From assembly GCF_055900595.2 (NCBI RefSeq), contig NZ_CM148325.1: a DNA stretch of 64,000 bases, one strand, 5' to 3'. The notes under the pieces were generated by a model. That model made no database searches and was not told the origin of the DNA. It saw only the letters and a program-made list of their open reading frames with translations. The position numbers and the translations under genes were made by a program. Each line of letters starts with the position of its first letter. Position 1 is the first letter of the stretch. Shown here in pieces: positions 28,668 to 46,476 of this stretch.

Positions 28668-28872
28668 GGACATAAATCCATTTTATCAATAAGATACAAG
28701 GAAGTGTCAGCTGACAAAAGGTATTCTATTTCATCTTTTGTCAACCATTCACGGCGCAAATATACGCCTTTTTTTGTGATCACTCCGGCTTTTTTCGATC
28801 TTCATACTTGTATGGTAGTAGCTCAGTTGCGTAGATTTCATGCATCACGACAAGCGATGCAAGGAATCGAAC

Positions 28873-39961: not shown

Positions 39962-40387
39962 GTGGCAAAAGTTTTTACACAAGAAGAGCGAGAAAAAATT
40001 AAGGGGCAGGTTGTTGAACTTGTACGTCTGAGTGGTCGCGAGACGTTACGGGCTCTGGAGGCTAAAACCGGTGCATCAAGGTATTACATAAGCACTCTCG
40101 CCAGAGAGCTGGTTGCCAGCGGCGATGTATACAACTCTGGTTACGGATTATTCCCGTCTGAACAGGCTCGTAAGGACTGGCAAAATGCCCGCAAAAAACT
40201 CTCAAGGGCAAAGCTGAAGAAAAAAACATCTGTGGTTGATCCGGACCTTATCTGGTCATTACCTGACGGAGAAATACGTCGCTACGACAGTCGTCTAAAC
40301 ATAATCTGTCGCGAGTGCCGGAAGAGCGAAGTTATGCAGCGCATACTGGCATTTTATCAGGGAAATGTTTGGTATTTATTGAAATGA
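39962..40387 (+). CDS. Hypothetical prophage early protein
   Basis: 141-aa ORF (GTG start) (M)AKVFTQEEREKIKGQVVELVRLSGRETLRALEAKTGASRYYISTLARELV... ; basic, possible HTH. Confidence 0.45.
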   Translation: MAKVFTQEEREKIKGQVVELVRLSGRETLRALEAKTGASRYYISTLARELVASGDVYNSGYGLFPSEQARKDWQNARKKLSRAKLKKKTSVVDPDLIWSLPDGEIRRYDSRLNIICRECRKSEVMQRILAFYQGNVWYLLK

Positions 40388-40627
40388 CGAGATTAAAGAG
40401 CATTAGTTCAGATATTAATTGACACTTCGGTTGCATAAGACTAGAACTAGTGTGATTGGCATCTTTGTACCAAAAACGGACATTACAGTGTATGGTTAAT
40501 TCTGCCTGTCAAATAACTTACATTCATCAAATGATCGAAATTATGACTTAGCTCAACAATTAGGTTTAGCATGGGTCATATGACTAGAGTGTAGCAACTT
40601 TCTGCTATAATTTAATAAGGATAAAAA

Positions 40628-40855
40628 ATGCCAGCTTATGCTAATAAAGGCGGTAATTCGGGTATAGTGTTTTATGAGATTACTCCAGATGCTATCACAG
40701 TACAGTTTAAAGATGGATGGAAATACGTTTACGATTCTACAAAACCAGGGGCTTCAACGGTCTCTAGGATGAAAGAGTTAGCCCAGGCTGGGCATGGGCT
40801 AAATAGTTTTATTAGTAGTGTGGTTAAGAAAAATTTCTCACGTAAATACCTTTAA
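40628..40855 (+). CDS. KTSC-domain small protein
   Basis: 75-aa ORF MPAYANKGGNSGIVFYEITPDAITVQFKDGWKYVYDSTKPGASTVSRMKELAQAGHGLNSFISSVVKKNFSRKYL fits the KTSC pattern; RBS TAAGGA; followed by hairpin GAGGGTG...CACCCTC. Confidence 0.6.
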   Translation: MPAYANKGGNSGIVFYEITPDAITVQFKDGWKYVYDSTKPGASTVSRMKELAQAGHGLNSFISSVVKKNFSRKYL

Positions 40856-41008
40856 TTTTAATTGAGGGTGGGAAGGACTATCACCCTCATAATTCTTCAC
40901 CATTCAATCAAGAGCAATTCAAGGTGATTTGCTCTGTACATAGTCGGTTAGTTAGCACTTCGTAATTTATTGAATAGAAGGCTTTTGGAACAGTATCTTC
41001 ACTCGTGC

Positions 41009-41257
41009 TTATCGCCCAGCAGATTTAGCAAGAATAGTCTCGAGCATTTCTGGTACGTTGCCTTTAGCATTGATAGTTGCTGTTCGGTAAGCTAGTTGAT
41101 TTTTTGAGAGATTGATTCCTGTAAGTGCTTCAATTTCGTTGCAGGCCTTACCCCATTCTACCCAGTTTTCAGACAAAAAAGATTCAAGATGATCCGCAAA
41201 TATAGCAATATCATTAGTAACTGTTGCAGCTGGAATATAGACTATGCGAAAAGCCAT
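41009..41257 (-). CDS. Hypothetical protein (convergent with KTSC gene)
   Basis: 82-aa ORF MAFRIVYIPAATVTNDIAIFADHLESFLSENWVEWGKACNEIEALTGINL...; no recognisable motif. Confidence 0.4.
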   Translation of the reverse strand: MAFRIVYIPAATVTNDIAIFADHLESFLSENWVEWGKACNEIEALTGINLSKNQLAYRTATINAKGNVPEMLETILAKSAGR

Positions 41258-41579
41258 TGGTTGACTACTTCAATGTATCCTGTATCAACAATGAAAATGT
41301 CCGTTCTTCGCTCACAGAATTAGTGCGACAGCTTCGCACCAAGAGCTGACATTGTAATATCCGACAGGCTATTGCCTGTCAGTTAACAGTTACGTGTTAT
41401 AAAAGGTCAGGCGGGATCCTGACTAGGTGTGTTTAAAGAAGTGCTGGTGGTGAGCGGGTGTTGTGTCCAATTTCCACAGAAAAAAATCTGAGAAACTATA
41501 CCCAATAGTTGTATTGAATCACTGACGAGACAGCCTCATATTTATCAGGACTGGTGTACTTCCAATTCAGGAGGTTGTC

Positions 41580-41669: not shown

Positions 41670-41823
41670 TTTTATATTGGCGAGGTGACGTGAGTTAAGT
41701 AGAATTGCTGCGGGTGCTTGAGGCTATCTGCCTCAGGCATGAACACCAACGGCAGATAGAGAAAAGCCCCAGTTAACATTACGCGTCCTGCAAGACGCTT
41801 AACATTAATCTGAGGCCAATTTC

Positions 41824-42036
41824 ATGCTAGACACATGTAGGTTAGCCTCTTACGTGCCGGAAGGCAAGGAGAAGCAGGCTATGAAGCAGCAAAAGGCGAT
41901 GTTAATCGCCCTGATCGTCATCTGTTTAACCGTCATAGTGACGGCACTGGTAACGAGGAAAGACCTCTGCGAGGTACGAATCCGAACCGGCCAGACGGAG
42001 GTCGCTGTCTTCACAGCTTACGAACCTGAGGAGTAA
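41824..42036 (+). CDS. mokD: Mok-like leader frame (N-terminally extended hok reading frame)
   Basis: ATG at 41824, MLDTCRLASYVPEGKEKQA-MKQQK...; same frame as hok, as in annotated mok/hok pairs. Confidence 0.5.
   Translation: MLDTCRLASYVPEGKEKQAMKQQKAMLIALIVICLTVIVTALVTRKDLCEVRIRTGQTEVAVFTAYEPEE
41881..42036 (+). CDS. hokD: Hok-family type I toxin (HokD/RelF-like)
   Basis: 51-aa ORF MKQQKAMLIALIVICLTVIVTALVTRKDLCEVRIRTGQTEVAVFTAYEPEE. Confidence 0.9.
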   Translation: MKQQKAMLIALIVICLTVIVTALVTRKDLCEVRIRTGQTEVAVFTAYEPEE

Positions 42037-42104: not shown

Positions 42105-42126
42105 AACCCGCTTCGGCGGGTTTTTC
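42105..42126 (+). terminator. Rho-independent terminator after hok
   Basis: CCCGC-ttcg-GCGGG stem-loop followed by TTTTT. Confidence 0.7.
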
Positions 42127-42202
42127 TAGCATCTACCTGGTTGACAAAGTCGATGTTAAATGGAAATATGGTTGACACCAAAACAACAAGGATATTACGG
42201 TC

Positions 42203-42817
42203 ATGCAGAATTTATCTCAACAGTTGTTAGAAGCATATGACAAGGAGTGCCGCAAAGAGCTTTCGATCGCGTTAGCACAGGCTTATCTTCATTCGCATAT
42301 GAAGGCAAAAGAGTTTGGTTCTTTTTGGGCTCAAGCACAGTCATATTTGCGCTGGTTTTATGCCGATGCATTGCTTGAGAATGCGGCTAAGCGTGTGGGG
42401 CTGGATTTTGAAGTCGGTAGCAATGCTGCTAAAAATTGTAAACACATTGCGATTCACTCGAACAACTGGAAAATGACGGCACATCATTTATCGGGTAATG
42501 CGCCACTTCCTAAGCAGGCATTGTATAGAGCTGTTTACGCTAATCAAAATTATGAATTGAATTTTGGGGATGAAAATGCCGACTCCCTGGATGGGAGAGC
42601 GTCTGGTGGACATGTTTATATGTTACATGATGGCAGTAATCAGCACTTGTCCAAACTGAATTTAACTGTTCCTTCTTCGGATAATTACGGGATTCTTTAT
42701 ACTGAGTCTTTACCAATTATGACGATGGTAGAAGTTGAAGCAGAAAATGTGGATTCTGAGATTGAAGATAAAATCAAGATTCTTACCGAACAAATAATTA
42801 AATCACAGCAATCATGA
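42203..42817 (+). CDS. Uncharacterised protein, upstream partner of the HTH-peptidase gene (candidate toxin/effector)
   Basis: 204-aa ORF MQNLSQQLLEAYDKECRKELSIALAQAYLHSHMKAKEFGSFW...; RBS AAGGA; stop overlaps the next gene's start (ATGA); no motif recognised; AT-rich. Confidence 0.7.
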   Translation: MQNLSQQLLEAYDKECRKELSIALAQAYLHSHMKAKEFGSFWAQAQSYLRWFYADALLENAAKRVGLDFEVGSNAAKNCKHIAIHSNNWKMTAHHLSGNAPLPKQALYRAVYANQNYELNFGDENADSLDGRASGGHVYMLHDGSNQHLSKLNLTVPSSDNYGILYTESLPIMTMVEVEAENVDSEIEDKIKILTEQIIKSQQS

Positions 42818-43959
42818 GCATGAATATCGCACAAACACCATTTACTGATAAATCGTTTAATCCTCGTCGCCTTGAGGAGGCAAGAGAGGCAAAAGGGTTG
42901 ACGATGGCTGAACTTGCCAGAGTGCTCAATATTTCAAGACAAGCTATTTCGTCATTTGAGAAGGGGTTGAAGTCTCCCTCTGCTGATACACTTTCTGCAA
43001 TAGCCAAGGTGTTAGGATTTCCAGAACGATTTTTCTTAGCCTCCAGTGCTTCTCCATCTCTGGAGGGGGCGATTCATTTTAGAAGTCGTTCAACTGCGAC
43101 CAAAAAGGCTCGAGTTACAGGGAAAACACGTGGGCGTTGGGCGGCATTAATATTGGATGAATGTCTAAAATATGCTCAATTACCAGATGTGGTTCTGCCT
43201 GAATTCGATATTATTGATTTTGAGGTTCTGTCTCTATCTGATATTGAGGATATGTCCACCCAATTAAGGCGTTTTTGGGGGTTAGGTGATGGTCCAATAC
43301 TCAATTTAACTAGACTTGTTGAAAATAAAGGAATCGTGGTTTCTCATTTACCTTCTGGTGAGAAAGTTGATGCCTTTTCGTTCTGGCATAATGGGCGGCC
43401 TTTAATTATGTTAGATAGCTCGAAGACGGCTGTTCGCATGCGATTTAGTCTTGCTCATGAACTTGGCCATTTAATTATGCATAGGGCAGTGGAGGATGAC
43501 TACCTGAATGATAAAGAATTATTCGACCTGGTGGAGTTGCAGGCCGATTATTTTGCCTCCAGCTTTTTAATGCCAGCCACCACTTTCGGGCGTGAATTTT
43601 ATAGTCCAAATTTATCAGCGTTAGAACGATTAAAACTACGTTGGATTACATCTATCGGTAGTATTGCCATGAGGAGTCATAGCCTTAAGTTAATCAGCGA
43701 TAATCAGAAAAGCTATATATTTAAGCAATTAGCGCCATTCCATCGTAGGGAGCCGTTAGATGATGCAATCCCAAAAGAAGAGCCTGAGTTACTTAATAAG
43801 TTACTTTTACTTCTTGATAAGCATTCAATCATAAAGGTAACTGAGTTAACTGATATCTTTGCTCTTCCCTTAAATGAGTTATCTGCAATTACACGATTTA
43901 AAGAATCAGATATGATTCATTCTGACAATGTTATTTCATTTACCATAAAACAAAAATAA
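42814..43959 (+). CDS. XRE-family HTH fused to ImmA/IrrE-type zinc metallopeptidase
   Basis: 381-aa ORF; N-terminal HTH (...LTMAELARVLNISRQAISSFEKGLKSPSADTLSAIAKVLGF...) and HExxH motif in ...RFSLAHELGHLIMH...; translationally coupled to upstream gene. Confidence 0.8.
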   Translation: MSMNIAQTPFTDKSFNPRRLEEAREAKGLTMAELARVLNISRQAISSFEKGLKSPSADTLSAIAKVLGFPERFFLASSASPSLEGAIHFRSRSTATKKARVTGKTRGRWAALILDECLKYAQLPDVVLPEFDIIDFEVLSLSDIEDMSTQLRRFWGLGDGPILNLTRLVENKGIVVSHLPSGEKVDAFSFWHNGRPLIMLDSSKTAVRMRFSLAHELGHLIMHRAVEDDYLNDKELFDLVELQADYFASSFLMPATTFGREFYSPNLSALERLKLRWITSIGSIAMRSHSLKLISDNQKSYIFKQLAPFHRREPLDDAIPKEEPELLNKLLLLLDKHSIIKVTELTDIFALPLNELSAITRFKESDMIHSDNVISFTIKQK

Positions 43960-43970
43960 TTCTCATTCAT

Positions 43971-43994
43971 ACCCGCCTCGGCGGGTTTTTGTTT
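43971..43994 (+). terminator. Rho-independent terminator after the HTH-peptidase gene
   Basis: CCCGCC-tc-GGCGGG stem followed by TTTTTGTTTT. Confidence 0.75.
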
Positions 43995-44065
43995 TACGTA
44001 TTCTGGTTTACAATCCACAGGCCAGCCTGAACAACTGGCACCTGCTGCGCCAGCAGAGACAACCG

Positions 44066-45395: not shown

Positions 45396-45412
45396 TTTTG
45401 TGGAGTAAGTTG

Positions 45413-45790
45413 ATGCGTGATATTCAGATGGTTCTTGAGCGTTGGGGGGCATGGGCGGCTAATAATCATGAAGATGTGACCTGGTCGTCCATTGCCGCTG
45501 GTTTTAAGGGATTAATTCCTTCAAAAGTAAGATCTCGTCCGCAATGCTGTGACGATGACGCGATGATCATTTGTGAATGTATGGCTCGCCTGAGAAAAAA
45601 CAACAGCGATTTACATGGTTTATTGGTGGACTATTATGTCGGCGGCATGACTTTTATGGCGCTTGCACGTAAGCATGGGCGATCTGATTGTTGGGTTGGC
45701 AGGATGCTCCAGAAAGCTGAGGGCGTAGTGGAGGGCATGCTGATGGTATTGGATCTCCGATTGGAGATGGATGCTGATTGTTCGAAATAA
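45413..45790 (+). CDS. Late-gene antiterminator Q (short QuuD-type)
   Basis: [79 protein letters not shown]...; RBS GGAG. Confidence 0.85.
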
Positions 45791-45945: not shown

Positions 45946-46476
45946 TTATTGTTTAACCCATAATAATTCATTGACATTGAATCCCAACTTTTGAGCGGTT
46001 CGCACATAGTCTGCTTTTACTTTATCTGGAATAGTTGGGGTCCTTGCCAGAATCCATAGGTATTCTCTGTTCGAACCACTAACAAGAGCATACTTATACT
46101 CATCATCCAGTTTGATTACATTATAGCCACCATAGAAGGGGCCAAAAAACGAAACCTTCAACGCTGCAGTTTTAGTATCTCCAGTAAAGTATGCTTTACC
46201 TTCGCTCTCGCTCCATTTATTTTTCGTTGGATCGTATCCACGGTTAAGTACACGAATCCCTCCGTCGTTCCGTTTTCCATAAGTAGCGCTGACCTGCTCC
46301 AGACCACGTTCGAACCGGTTCTCGAGGCGAGCTATTTCATACCATTTTCCGAGGTAGCGGTTGGCGTCAAAATTTGTAATCGGCTGCACACCTTTAGGTG
46401 GTGTCGGGGCCTTACATGCTATAAGAGTGAAAGAGAGTGCAATGCCAGTCAACACAGGCCATAACTTCATAATCAA
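45946..46476 (-). CDS. Outer-membrane lipocalin (Blc homolog) lipoprotein, prophage moron
   Basis: 176-aa ORF with lipobox (...SFTLIAC) and lipocalin core FDANRYLGKWYEIARLENRFERGLE...YLWILARTPTIP; opposite strand to flanking late genes. Confidence 0.85.
   Translation of the reverse strand: MIMKLWPVLTGIALSFTLIACKAPTPPKGVQPITNFDANRYLGKWYEIARLENRFERGLEQVSATYGKRNDGGIRVLNRGYDPTKNKWSESEGKAYFTGDTKTAALKVSFFGPFYGGYNVIKLDDEYKYALVSGSNREYLWILARTPTIPDKVKADYVRTAQKLGFNVNELLWVKQ

Follow-up and report, generated by a model that had tools for sequence, protein, structure and literature searches.

What is the role of two overlapping genes, coding for proteins of 204 and 381 amino acids (aa), that lie together in the accessory region of an Escherichia coli prophage? 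The genes are found in a 64,000-nucleotide (nt) stretch of DNA (NCBI RefSeq assembly GCF_055900595.2, contig NZ_CM148325.1), hereafter the window, and the element that carries them is a Qin/Tritos-type lambdoid prophage. An earlier reading of the nucleotide sequence (the original prediction) proposed that they form a novel phage-defence module of the toxin-antitoxin (TA) type, in which the downstream protein, an XRE-type helix-turn-helix (HTH) fused to an ImmA/IrrE-family zinc peptidase, is the antitoxin or regulator and the upstream protein is the toxin. Our analyses indicate that the locus is a RosmerTA-type rmrT-rmrA module, a moron cassette with autonomous expression that occupies the slot between hokD and ydfU. 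We put the probability of this reading at roughly 0.8, with toxicity, neutralization and defence assigned by analogy.

RosmerTA, consisting of RmrT and RmrA, was described by Millman et al. 2022 (10.1101/2022.05.11.491447), and later work treats it as a family that combines an ImmA-type antitoxin with diverse toxins (Ernits et al. 2023, PMC10440598). The functional part of the original prediction is supported, as the architecture that it proposed for the locus is that of RosmerTA. The claim of novelty, however, did not hold, since both proteins match existing PADLOC RmrA and RmrT profiles and the downstream protein is a full-length homologue of a verified RmrA. The module thus belongs to a family described in 2022 that is already part of standard defence-profile libraries, and is not a new kind of system.

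Both proteins belong to Rosmer families

The 381-aa protein, hereafter RmrA, is matched over its full length by the PADLOC RmrA profile PDLC03947 (residues 11-380, E = 5.5e-102). It also aligns end to end with RmrA of the verified system of E. coli OLC-716 (31% identity over 354 aligned columns, E = 4e-41); the sequences of the verified RmrT and RmrA were taken from the supplement of 10.1101/2022.05.11.491447. The predicted fusion was borne out by Pfam, which places HTH_3 at residues 20-73 (4.6e-16) and Peptidase_M78 at residues 170-287 (6.3e-18), with an intact HExxH motif (HELGH, residues 215-219) and, in addition, an E241-LQADYFAS motif. The C-terminal extension, previously put at ~150 aa, proved shorter: the tail past the Pfam M78 envelope is ~94 aa long and is part of the conserved RmrA architecture. 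By sequence, RmrA is related to the spr1629 antitoxin family but is not an equivalog of it, with the NCBIfam model NF052239 giving an E-value of 4.8e-55 and 187.2 bits, below the curated cutoff of 335.

The 204-aa protein, hereafter RmrT, had been described as lacking any recognizable motif. This remains true for Pfam and NCBIfam, neither of which gave a match, but not for PADLOC, whose RmrT profiles match the protein, nor for PHROG 35814, which covers it over its full length and itself carries no functional annotation. A profile built from nine close homologues and run against 1.84 billion representative proteins found 78 clusters at E <= 1e-3, almost all of them 200-230 aa long. When ten remote relatives were compared with PADLOC, they matched RmrT profiles only, with PDLC03933 at 1.7e-8 to 2.3e-52, and the 204-aa protein can thus be considered a divergent member of a catalogued RmrT class. 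Pfam gave nothing significant in any of 55 members of this class, and NCBIfam nothing significant in the ten remote members. Searches of PDB sequences with the 9- and 55-sequence RmrT profiles returned nothing usable, and no further named relatives emerged when homologues were sought by word seeding with the 55-sequence profile.

We then asked how closely the two genes are associated, using five loci found via remote homologues and 17 viral contigs found via close ones. In all 22 loci with downstream DNA, an RmrA homologue lies immediately after the RmrT homologue on the same strand. The two proteins also diverge jointly, with RmrT identity falling from 100% to 25% and that of RmrA from 100% to 35-42%. 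Both rmrT and rmrA are real genes and not chance open reading frames (ORFs), as they are annotated in RefSeq, are kept as a pair down to 25-35% identity and are transcribed in a lysogen of E. coli LF82.

A terminator-bracketed cassette in an exchangeable slot

The features of the cassette are collected in Table 1. The two ORFs are present as the original prediction had them, sharing ATGA at 42814-42817, and the AT-rich block in which they were said to sit is visible as a GC content of 0.385-0.445 over 42200-44000, compared to 0.54-0.56 immediately downstream and ~0.49 over hokD. Terminators had been proposed on both sides, and both hairpins do fold and are followed by a T run. The upstream hairpin has a predicted RNA folding energy of -13.9 kcal/mol (z -2.4) and was missed by a pattern scan, whereas the downstream one (-12.1 kcal/mol, z -3.2) was also called by that scan. 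The setting agrees with the predicted position between replication genes and Q, next to hok: upstream are hokD, with an Rfam match to sok, and further up the replication genes, and downstream are a 92-aa gene, ydfU (DUF968) and Q. The prophage has its own pair of a LexA-like CI and Cro.

Table 1 Features of the rmrT-rmrA cassette (positions in the window)
Feature	Position	Strand	Details
Hairpin, hokD intrinsic terminator; upstream cassette boundary	42105-42126	+	AACCCGC-TTCG-GCGGGTT + T run
Candidate promoter and operator	42138-42177	+	Read from sequence; putative roles
rmrT, toxin candidate, 204 aa	42203-42817	+	WP_001180546.1, TRITO_40, LF82_281
rmrA, XRE-HTH / M78 Zn-peptidase antitoxin-regulator, 381 aa	42814-43959	+	WP_000062344.1, TRITO_41, LF82_280
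Hairpin, second terminator copy; downstream cassette boundary	43971-43994	+	ACCCGC-CTCG-GCGGGT + T run

We sought to determine how widespread the module is. Over its 1,859 bp, the region matches Escherichia phage Tritos (TRITO_40/41), which resides as a prophage in the adherent-invasive, Crohn's-associated strain LF82, at 99.9% identity. The original prediction had suggested a comparison of this slot across related prophages, in which a routine nin-region gene would be seen in all relatives. Among 5,426 complete E. coli genomes, the module was found in 40 (~0.7%), always as one copy, with at least 99% identity and on the chromosome, whereas the flanking arrangement of hokD, the 92-aa gene and ydfU was matched in 4,820. 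In relatives, the slot between hokD and ydfU is empty (locus L003) or filled with other cargo, namely a toxin gene of the death-on-curing (Doc) type preceded by a small ORF (L004), rem (L005) or a 130-aa hypothetical protein gene (L006).

The terminator itself appears to mark the limits of the exchange. At the empty site the hairpin ACCCGCYTCGGCGGG with its T run is present once (L003, about 985-1010). Two copies, one on either side, bracket rmrTA, the Doc-type cargo (L004, about 715-735 and 1565-1585) and the 130-aa cargo (L006, about 770-790 and 1450-1470, with the first copy degraded), and the sequence downstream of 43971-43994 in the window rejoins that of the empty site. This suggests that one cassette replaces another through recombination that takes place at the terminator or includes it. 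The slot downstream of hokD is a terminator-bracketed cargo site at which TA modules are exchanged.

Outside this slot the module travels in other company, and only the near-identical E. coli copies have hokD beside them. A 93% identical version, whose closest named protein relative is from Salmonella, is flanked by a P-like loader and NinB in the nin region (L024). Others are found between a DNA methyltransferase and lysis genes (L029) or after a lysis cassette (L009). A Yersinia-type orthologue, with proteins 65-70% identical (L010 4689-7757, L011 497-3009), sits in a lambdoid prophage directly downstream of an S24-peptidase cI-type repressor gene and not beside hok. The position directly downstream of cI is occupied in phage lambda by rexAB.

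Expression from a candidate promoter of its own

A candidate promoter upstream of the rmrT start consists of a perfect -35 element (TTGACA, 42141-42146), a 17-nt spacer and a -10 element (AAATAT, 42164-42169), with the extended -10 element TGn at the end of the spacer (TGG, 42161-42163). Two direct repeats of the 9-mer TGGTTGACA, at 42138-42146 and 42169-42177 and thus 31 bp apart, cover its -35 and its -10/+1 regions. In the 64 kb of the window this 9-mer is found three times, compared to 0.65 copies expected. Both repeats and their spacing are kept upstream of the Yersinia-type orthologue, where the sequence between the repeats has diverged and the locus occupies a different phage slot. From their sequence and position, we infer that the repeats are a putative operator for the HTH of RmrA. 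The third exact copy of TGGTTGACA, at 28739-28747 on the minus strand, is probably a chance occurrence, as one of 100 shuffled sequences also had three copies.

The genes are expressed in at least one lysogen. RNA sequencing of an LF82 lysogen found LF82_281 (rmrT) 30-fold and LF82_280 (rmrA) 14-fold above the prophage background, and both were listed as morons (PMC9928086, Table 1). In the same data, hokD was the most transcribed Tritos gene, at 3,792-fold above background. That study left the system unnamed, with LF82_281 given as hypothetical and LF82_280 as ImmA/IrrE. Our literature search found no paper that ties LF82 or Tritos to Rosmer and none that reports phage protection for this locus, and a preprint on CRISPR interference in LF82 contains no statement on clpX or clpP essentiality or on rmrT and rmrA. 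The present assignment adds a named defence/TA system to prophage Tritos of LF82 and to 39 other sequenced E. coli, in which the current annotation reads 'hypothetical protein' followed by a 'helix-turn-helix' or 'ImmA/IrrE' protein only.

Predicted structure and possible action of RmrT

We modelled RmrT with AlphaFold2, using 55 family sequences (mean predicted local distance difference test score (pLDDT) 86.3, predicted template modelling score 0.76). The model begins with a long N-terminal helix (residues 14-64), followed by three strands, a short helix (107-114), a low-confidence loop, three further strands and a C-terminal helix. In the model of the verified RmrT (pLDDT 78), the secondary-structure elements follow one another in the same order, and the likeness between the two consists of this order and of a loop motif described below. 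The shared order agrees with Ernits et al. [quoted passage not shown] A Foldseek search of the RmrT model against the PDB gave nothing significant, with nuclease-fold proteins recurring among the weak matches, and a search against AFDB50 gave 298 matches at E <= 1e-3; among the 50 of these that were listed, nearly all were uncharacterized proteins of about 200-230 aa from many phyla.

The model suggests that the fold of RmrT is probably restriction-endonuclease-like. Polar residues conserved in the family are Y28, N74, N78, H81, T92, H94, R/K104, R109, N116, D118, H142 and E181. No D...(D/E)xK signature was found in the family; the conserved residues on strands 2 and 3, or adjacent to them, are N78, H81, T92 and H94, with no conserved acidic residue or lysine. 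A canonical PD-(D/E)xK nuclease was thus rejected, as the catalytic residues are missing. RmrT also has no hydrophobic or transmembrane segment and is predicted to be soluble. It is therefore probably not a membrane-depolarizing toxin like that of Gordonia phage Kita, and this possibility was rejected too.

Outside the sheet, conservation is highest in the motif N-(Y/L)-D-L-F, with which the low-confidence loop opens (N116 in 48/55, L119 in 41/53 and F121 in 52/54 sequences). In the copy studied here it reads NYELNF (residues 116-121), with a one-residue insertion, and the segment of lowest confidence in the model is 119-123. The equivalent loop in the family of the verified RmrT is QL(K/N)LDL, or NLDLF in a divergent branch. 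These sequences resemble the motif that binds the beta sliding clamp, whose canonical form is QL[S/D]LF and whose revised form is Q-aliphatic-x-[L/M]-[F/L] or Q-aliphatic-x-[L/M]-x-[F/L] (10.1101/2025.08.20.671105). In Hda, the clamp motif QLSLPL likewise lies within a flexible loop (PMC5397184). Furthermore, mutations that alter the hydrophobic pocket of DnaN suppress RipA, a Rosmer-family toxin of the pneumococcus, and RipA and DnaN interact in two-hybrid assays (10.1101/2025.09.02.673660).

By analogy with RipA, we tentatively propose docking on the beta sliding clamp, and thereby an attack on DNA replication, as the leading candidate for the action of RmrT; an atypical activity directed at nucleic acids is the alternative. 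A wider version, more speculative still, is that the Rosmer toxins of the common fold, in this class and in the verified one, may act as replication poisons whose restriction-endonuclease scaffold has degenerated catalytically, and that they dock on the hydrophobic pocket of the clamp via the loop motif and are held in check by RmrA and ClpXP. Either way, the loop motif provides a concrete hypothesis for how many Rosmer toxins could kill via the sliding clamp, and one that could explain the essentiality of ClpX and ClpP described below. If the wider version is true, the RipA-DnaN result, obtained with one pneumococcal protein, would apply to a large family of toxins in phage defence.

The C-terminus of RmrT (residues 174-204, ~42722-42814) comprises an acidic segment, in which E181 is kept in 51/55 sequences and I or V at position 183 in 46/55, followed by an amphipathic helix. 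RmrA or ClpX could contact RmrT, or process it, at this C-terminus.

Comparison with known systems

The locus shares with RosmerTA of OLC-716 the toxin-first gene order and an RmrA with an XRE HTH, an M78 domain with HExxH and the same C-terminal region. In both, the toxin is small, has no Pfam domain and, in the AlphaFold2 models, presents a loop motif of the [QN]-hydrophobic-x-L-x-[LF] type. They differ in that the toxins are dissimilar in sequence and profile and in that the present copy is prophage cargo beside hokD. The RmrT-D5/RmrA pair of Gordonia phage Kita is likewise phage-borne, has an ImmA-type antitoxin and defends E. coli against some BASEL phages (PMC10440598). Its toxin, however, has a C-terminal membrane region and depolarizes the membrane, whereas the present toxin has no hydrophobic segment. 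RipA/RipB (Spr1630/Spr1629) of Streptococcus pneumoniae is a Rosmer-family pair in which RipA is genetically tied to the DnaN pocket and to ClpX, and the present toxin has a clamp-like loop motif; RipAB differs in being chromosomal and competence-linked, and the present RmrA is not the spr1629 equivalog.

More distant resemblances lie in the antitoxin. An XRE-family HTH together with an M78 metallopeptidase is also found in ImmR/ImmA of ICEBs1, in IrrE/DdrO of Deinococcus and in CapH/CapP of the cyclic-oligonucleotide-based antiphage signalling system (CBASS). In those systems they are two separate proteins that switch the transcription of an element or operon, whereas here they are fused and have a toxin as partner. 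CapH and CapP genes, furthermore, lie beside the CBASS or defence operon that they regulate, whereas here the neighbours are hokD, the 92-aa gene and ydfU. PD-lambda-2 (Vassallo et al. 2022, PMC9519451), a defence system of E. coli, also has an Xre-peptidase fusion beside a toxin-like gene, but it consists of three genes, with a HigB-like one first and a P4-antitoxin-like one third. Membership in PD-lambda-2 was rejected, as the match to PD-Lambda-2_B is marginal (E = 0.002) and there is no third gene.

Genetic findings in other Rosmer systems indicate what RmrA does there. In the verified system, an rmrA deletion was not transformable (10.1101/2022.05.11.491447). In three Pectobacteriaceae rmrA is essential, and the essentiality of clpX is confined to the strains with Rosmer (10.64898/2025.12.09.693261). 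In E. coli E101, clpP becomes essential due to a prophage-borne pair of this type (10.1101/2020.05.25.114553), and RipB neutralizes RipA in a manner that needs ClpX (10.1101/2025.09.02.673660). Together, an rmrA that cannot be deleted or is essential, the essentiality of clpX and clpP and the need of RipB for ClpX point to RmrA being a true antitoxin with a proteolytic control element in these other Rosmer systems.

A working model and its alternatives

If the locus behaves as other Rosmer systems do, it would be transcribed as an operon from its own extended -10 promoter, with rmrT and rmrA translationally coupled. The XRE HTH of RmrA may bind both TGGTTGACA repeats and so autoregulate the operon. 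RmrA would keep RmrT harmless, and this control would probably have a proteolytic component that involves the M78 peptidase domain, given that other Rosmer systems need ClpX or ClpP. An incoming phage might then disturb the control by RmrA and free RmrT, so that growth of the infected cell stops and the infection is aborted.

Several observations weigh against this interpretation. The match of the 204-aa protein to the PADLOC RmrT profile PDLC03933 (E = 7.5e-10) is partial, covering residues 47-161 only. The verified RmrT of OLC-716 and its family show no similarity to it (BLASTP E = 2.3, hhalign probability 1.4%), and the two toxins match different PADLOC RmrT profiles, PDLC03933/34/37/40 for the 204-aa protein versus PDLC03935/32 for the verified toxin. 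This lack of homology does not bar membership in RosmerTA, since the literature defines RmrT as a set of diverse toxins (PMC10440598). The candidate promoter was not called by a consensus scan, which misses it because the -10 element fits the consensus at only 3/6 positions. The resemblance to the clamp motif is loose in this RmrT class, with N in place of the consensus Q and position 2 absent from some members; the strict consensus is found in 3/55 members and the relaxed one in 25/55, with the relaxed pattern also arising at some position in ~23% of shuffled sequences. Lastly, toxicity, neutralization and phage protection are all extrapolated from other Rosmer systems.

Could the pair be a plain addiction or stress-response TA module, one that stabilizes the prophage or answers host stress and plays no part in phage defence? 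RipAB, from the same family, has a documented role unrelated to phages, in pneumococcal competence, the module adjoins another post-segregational killer, hok/sok, and a defence role for this RmrT class is argued from analogy. Nonetheless, two Rosmer systems with unrelated toxins, those of OLC-716 and Gordonia phage Kita, protect against phages, and the module moves among classic moron and defence slots of prophages, including the one directly downstream of cI. We consider it unlikely that the module lacks a defence role altogether, and addiction and defence are in any case mutually compatible. A different kind of alternative is a switch resembling ImmR/ImmA or CapH/CapP, in which repressor and protease, fused in one protein, would respond to DNA damage by self-cleavage and so derepress the prophage or neighbouring genes. 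The 204-aa protein would then be an effector or accessory factor under regulation and not a toxin restrained at the protein level. The conserved promoter repeats, which suggest DNA binding by RmrA, are in keeping with this, as are the domain-level PADLOC matches (the M78 domain to CapP at 1.5e-21, the HTH to CapH at 1.7e-10) and the PDB sequence matches of RmrA, which include CapP, ICEBs1 ImmR, DdrO and IrrE. Such a switch is nevertheless very improbable. The two domains are fused, the prophage already has its own CI and Cro, ~99% of the prophages that have these flanks lack the module, and the cassette is bracketed by terminators with no CBASS-like or other regulated operon adjacent. Moreover, loss of RmrA is lethal in the Rosmer family, which points to neutralization of a toxin.

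It is harder still to regard the 204-aa protein as an ordinary replication or recombination protein of the lambdoid nin region that is paired with a peptidase by coincidence, even though it is encoded between replication genes and Q and has a weakly restriction-endonuclease-like fold. Its gene is absent from almost all related prophages and is followed by rmrA in 22/22 loci from unrelated phage contexts, its PHROG has no functional annotation and the canonical nuclease residues are missing. A routine nin-region gene is effectively refuted by how the module is distributed and paired, and the best explanation of the locus is a RosmerTA-type module.

Other cargo near the cassette

The hok/sok locus adjoins the cassette upstream. 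Rfam RF01794 (sok) was found at 41712-41886 (115.8 bits, reported on the plus strand), and hokD extends over 41881-42036 inside a 70-aa mok-like ORF that starts at 41824. Four small neighbouring ORFs of rmrTA gave no match to a defence family.

Upstream of hokD is a second AT-rich stretch (40200-41400, GC 0.365-0.41) with small ORFs at 40628-40855 on the plus strand (75 aa) and at 41009-41257 on the minus strand (82 aa), for which a PADLOC profile scan gave no match. In relatives this position holds a 1,335-bp hypothetical gene (Tritos) or a methyltransferase fragment with QueH (strain GABEEC10), and it may be another variable cargo slot.

On the downstream side, a short Q-family antiterminator gene (45398-45790) is closely followed by a lipocalin-family gene of 176 aa (45946-46476, minus strand). 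Its product belongs to PHROG 2809, of unknown function, and gives no known defence protein in a PADLOC scan; the gene is likely another moron.

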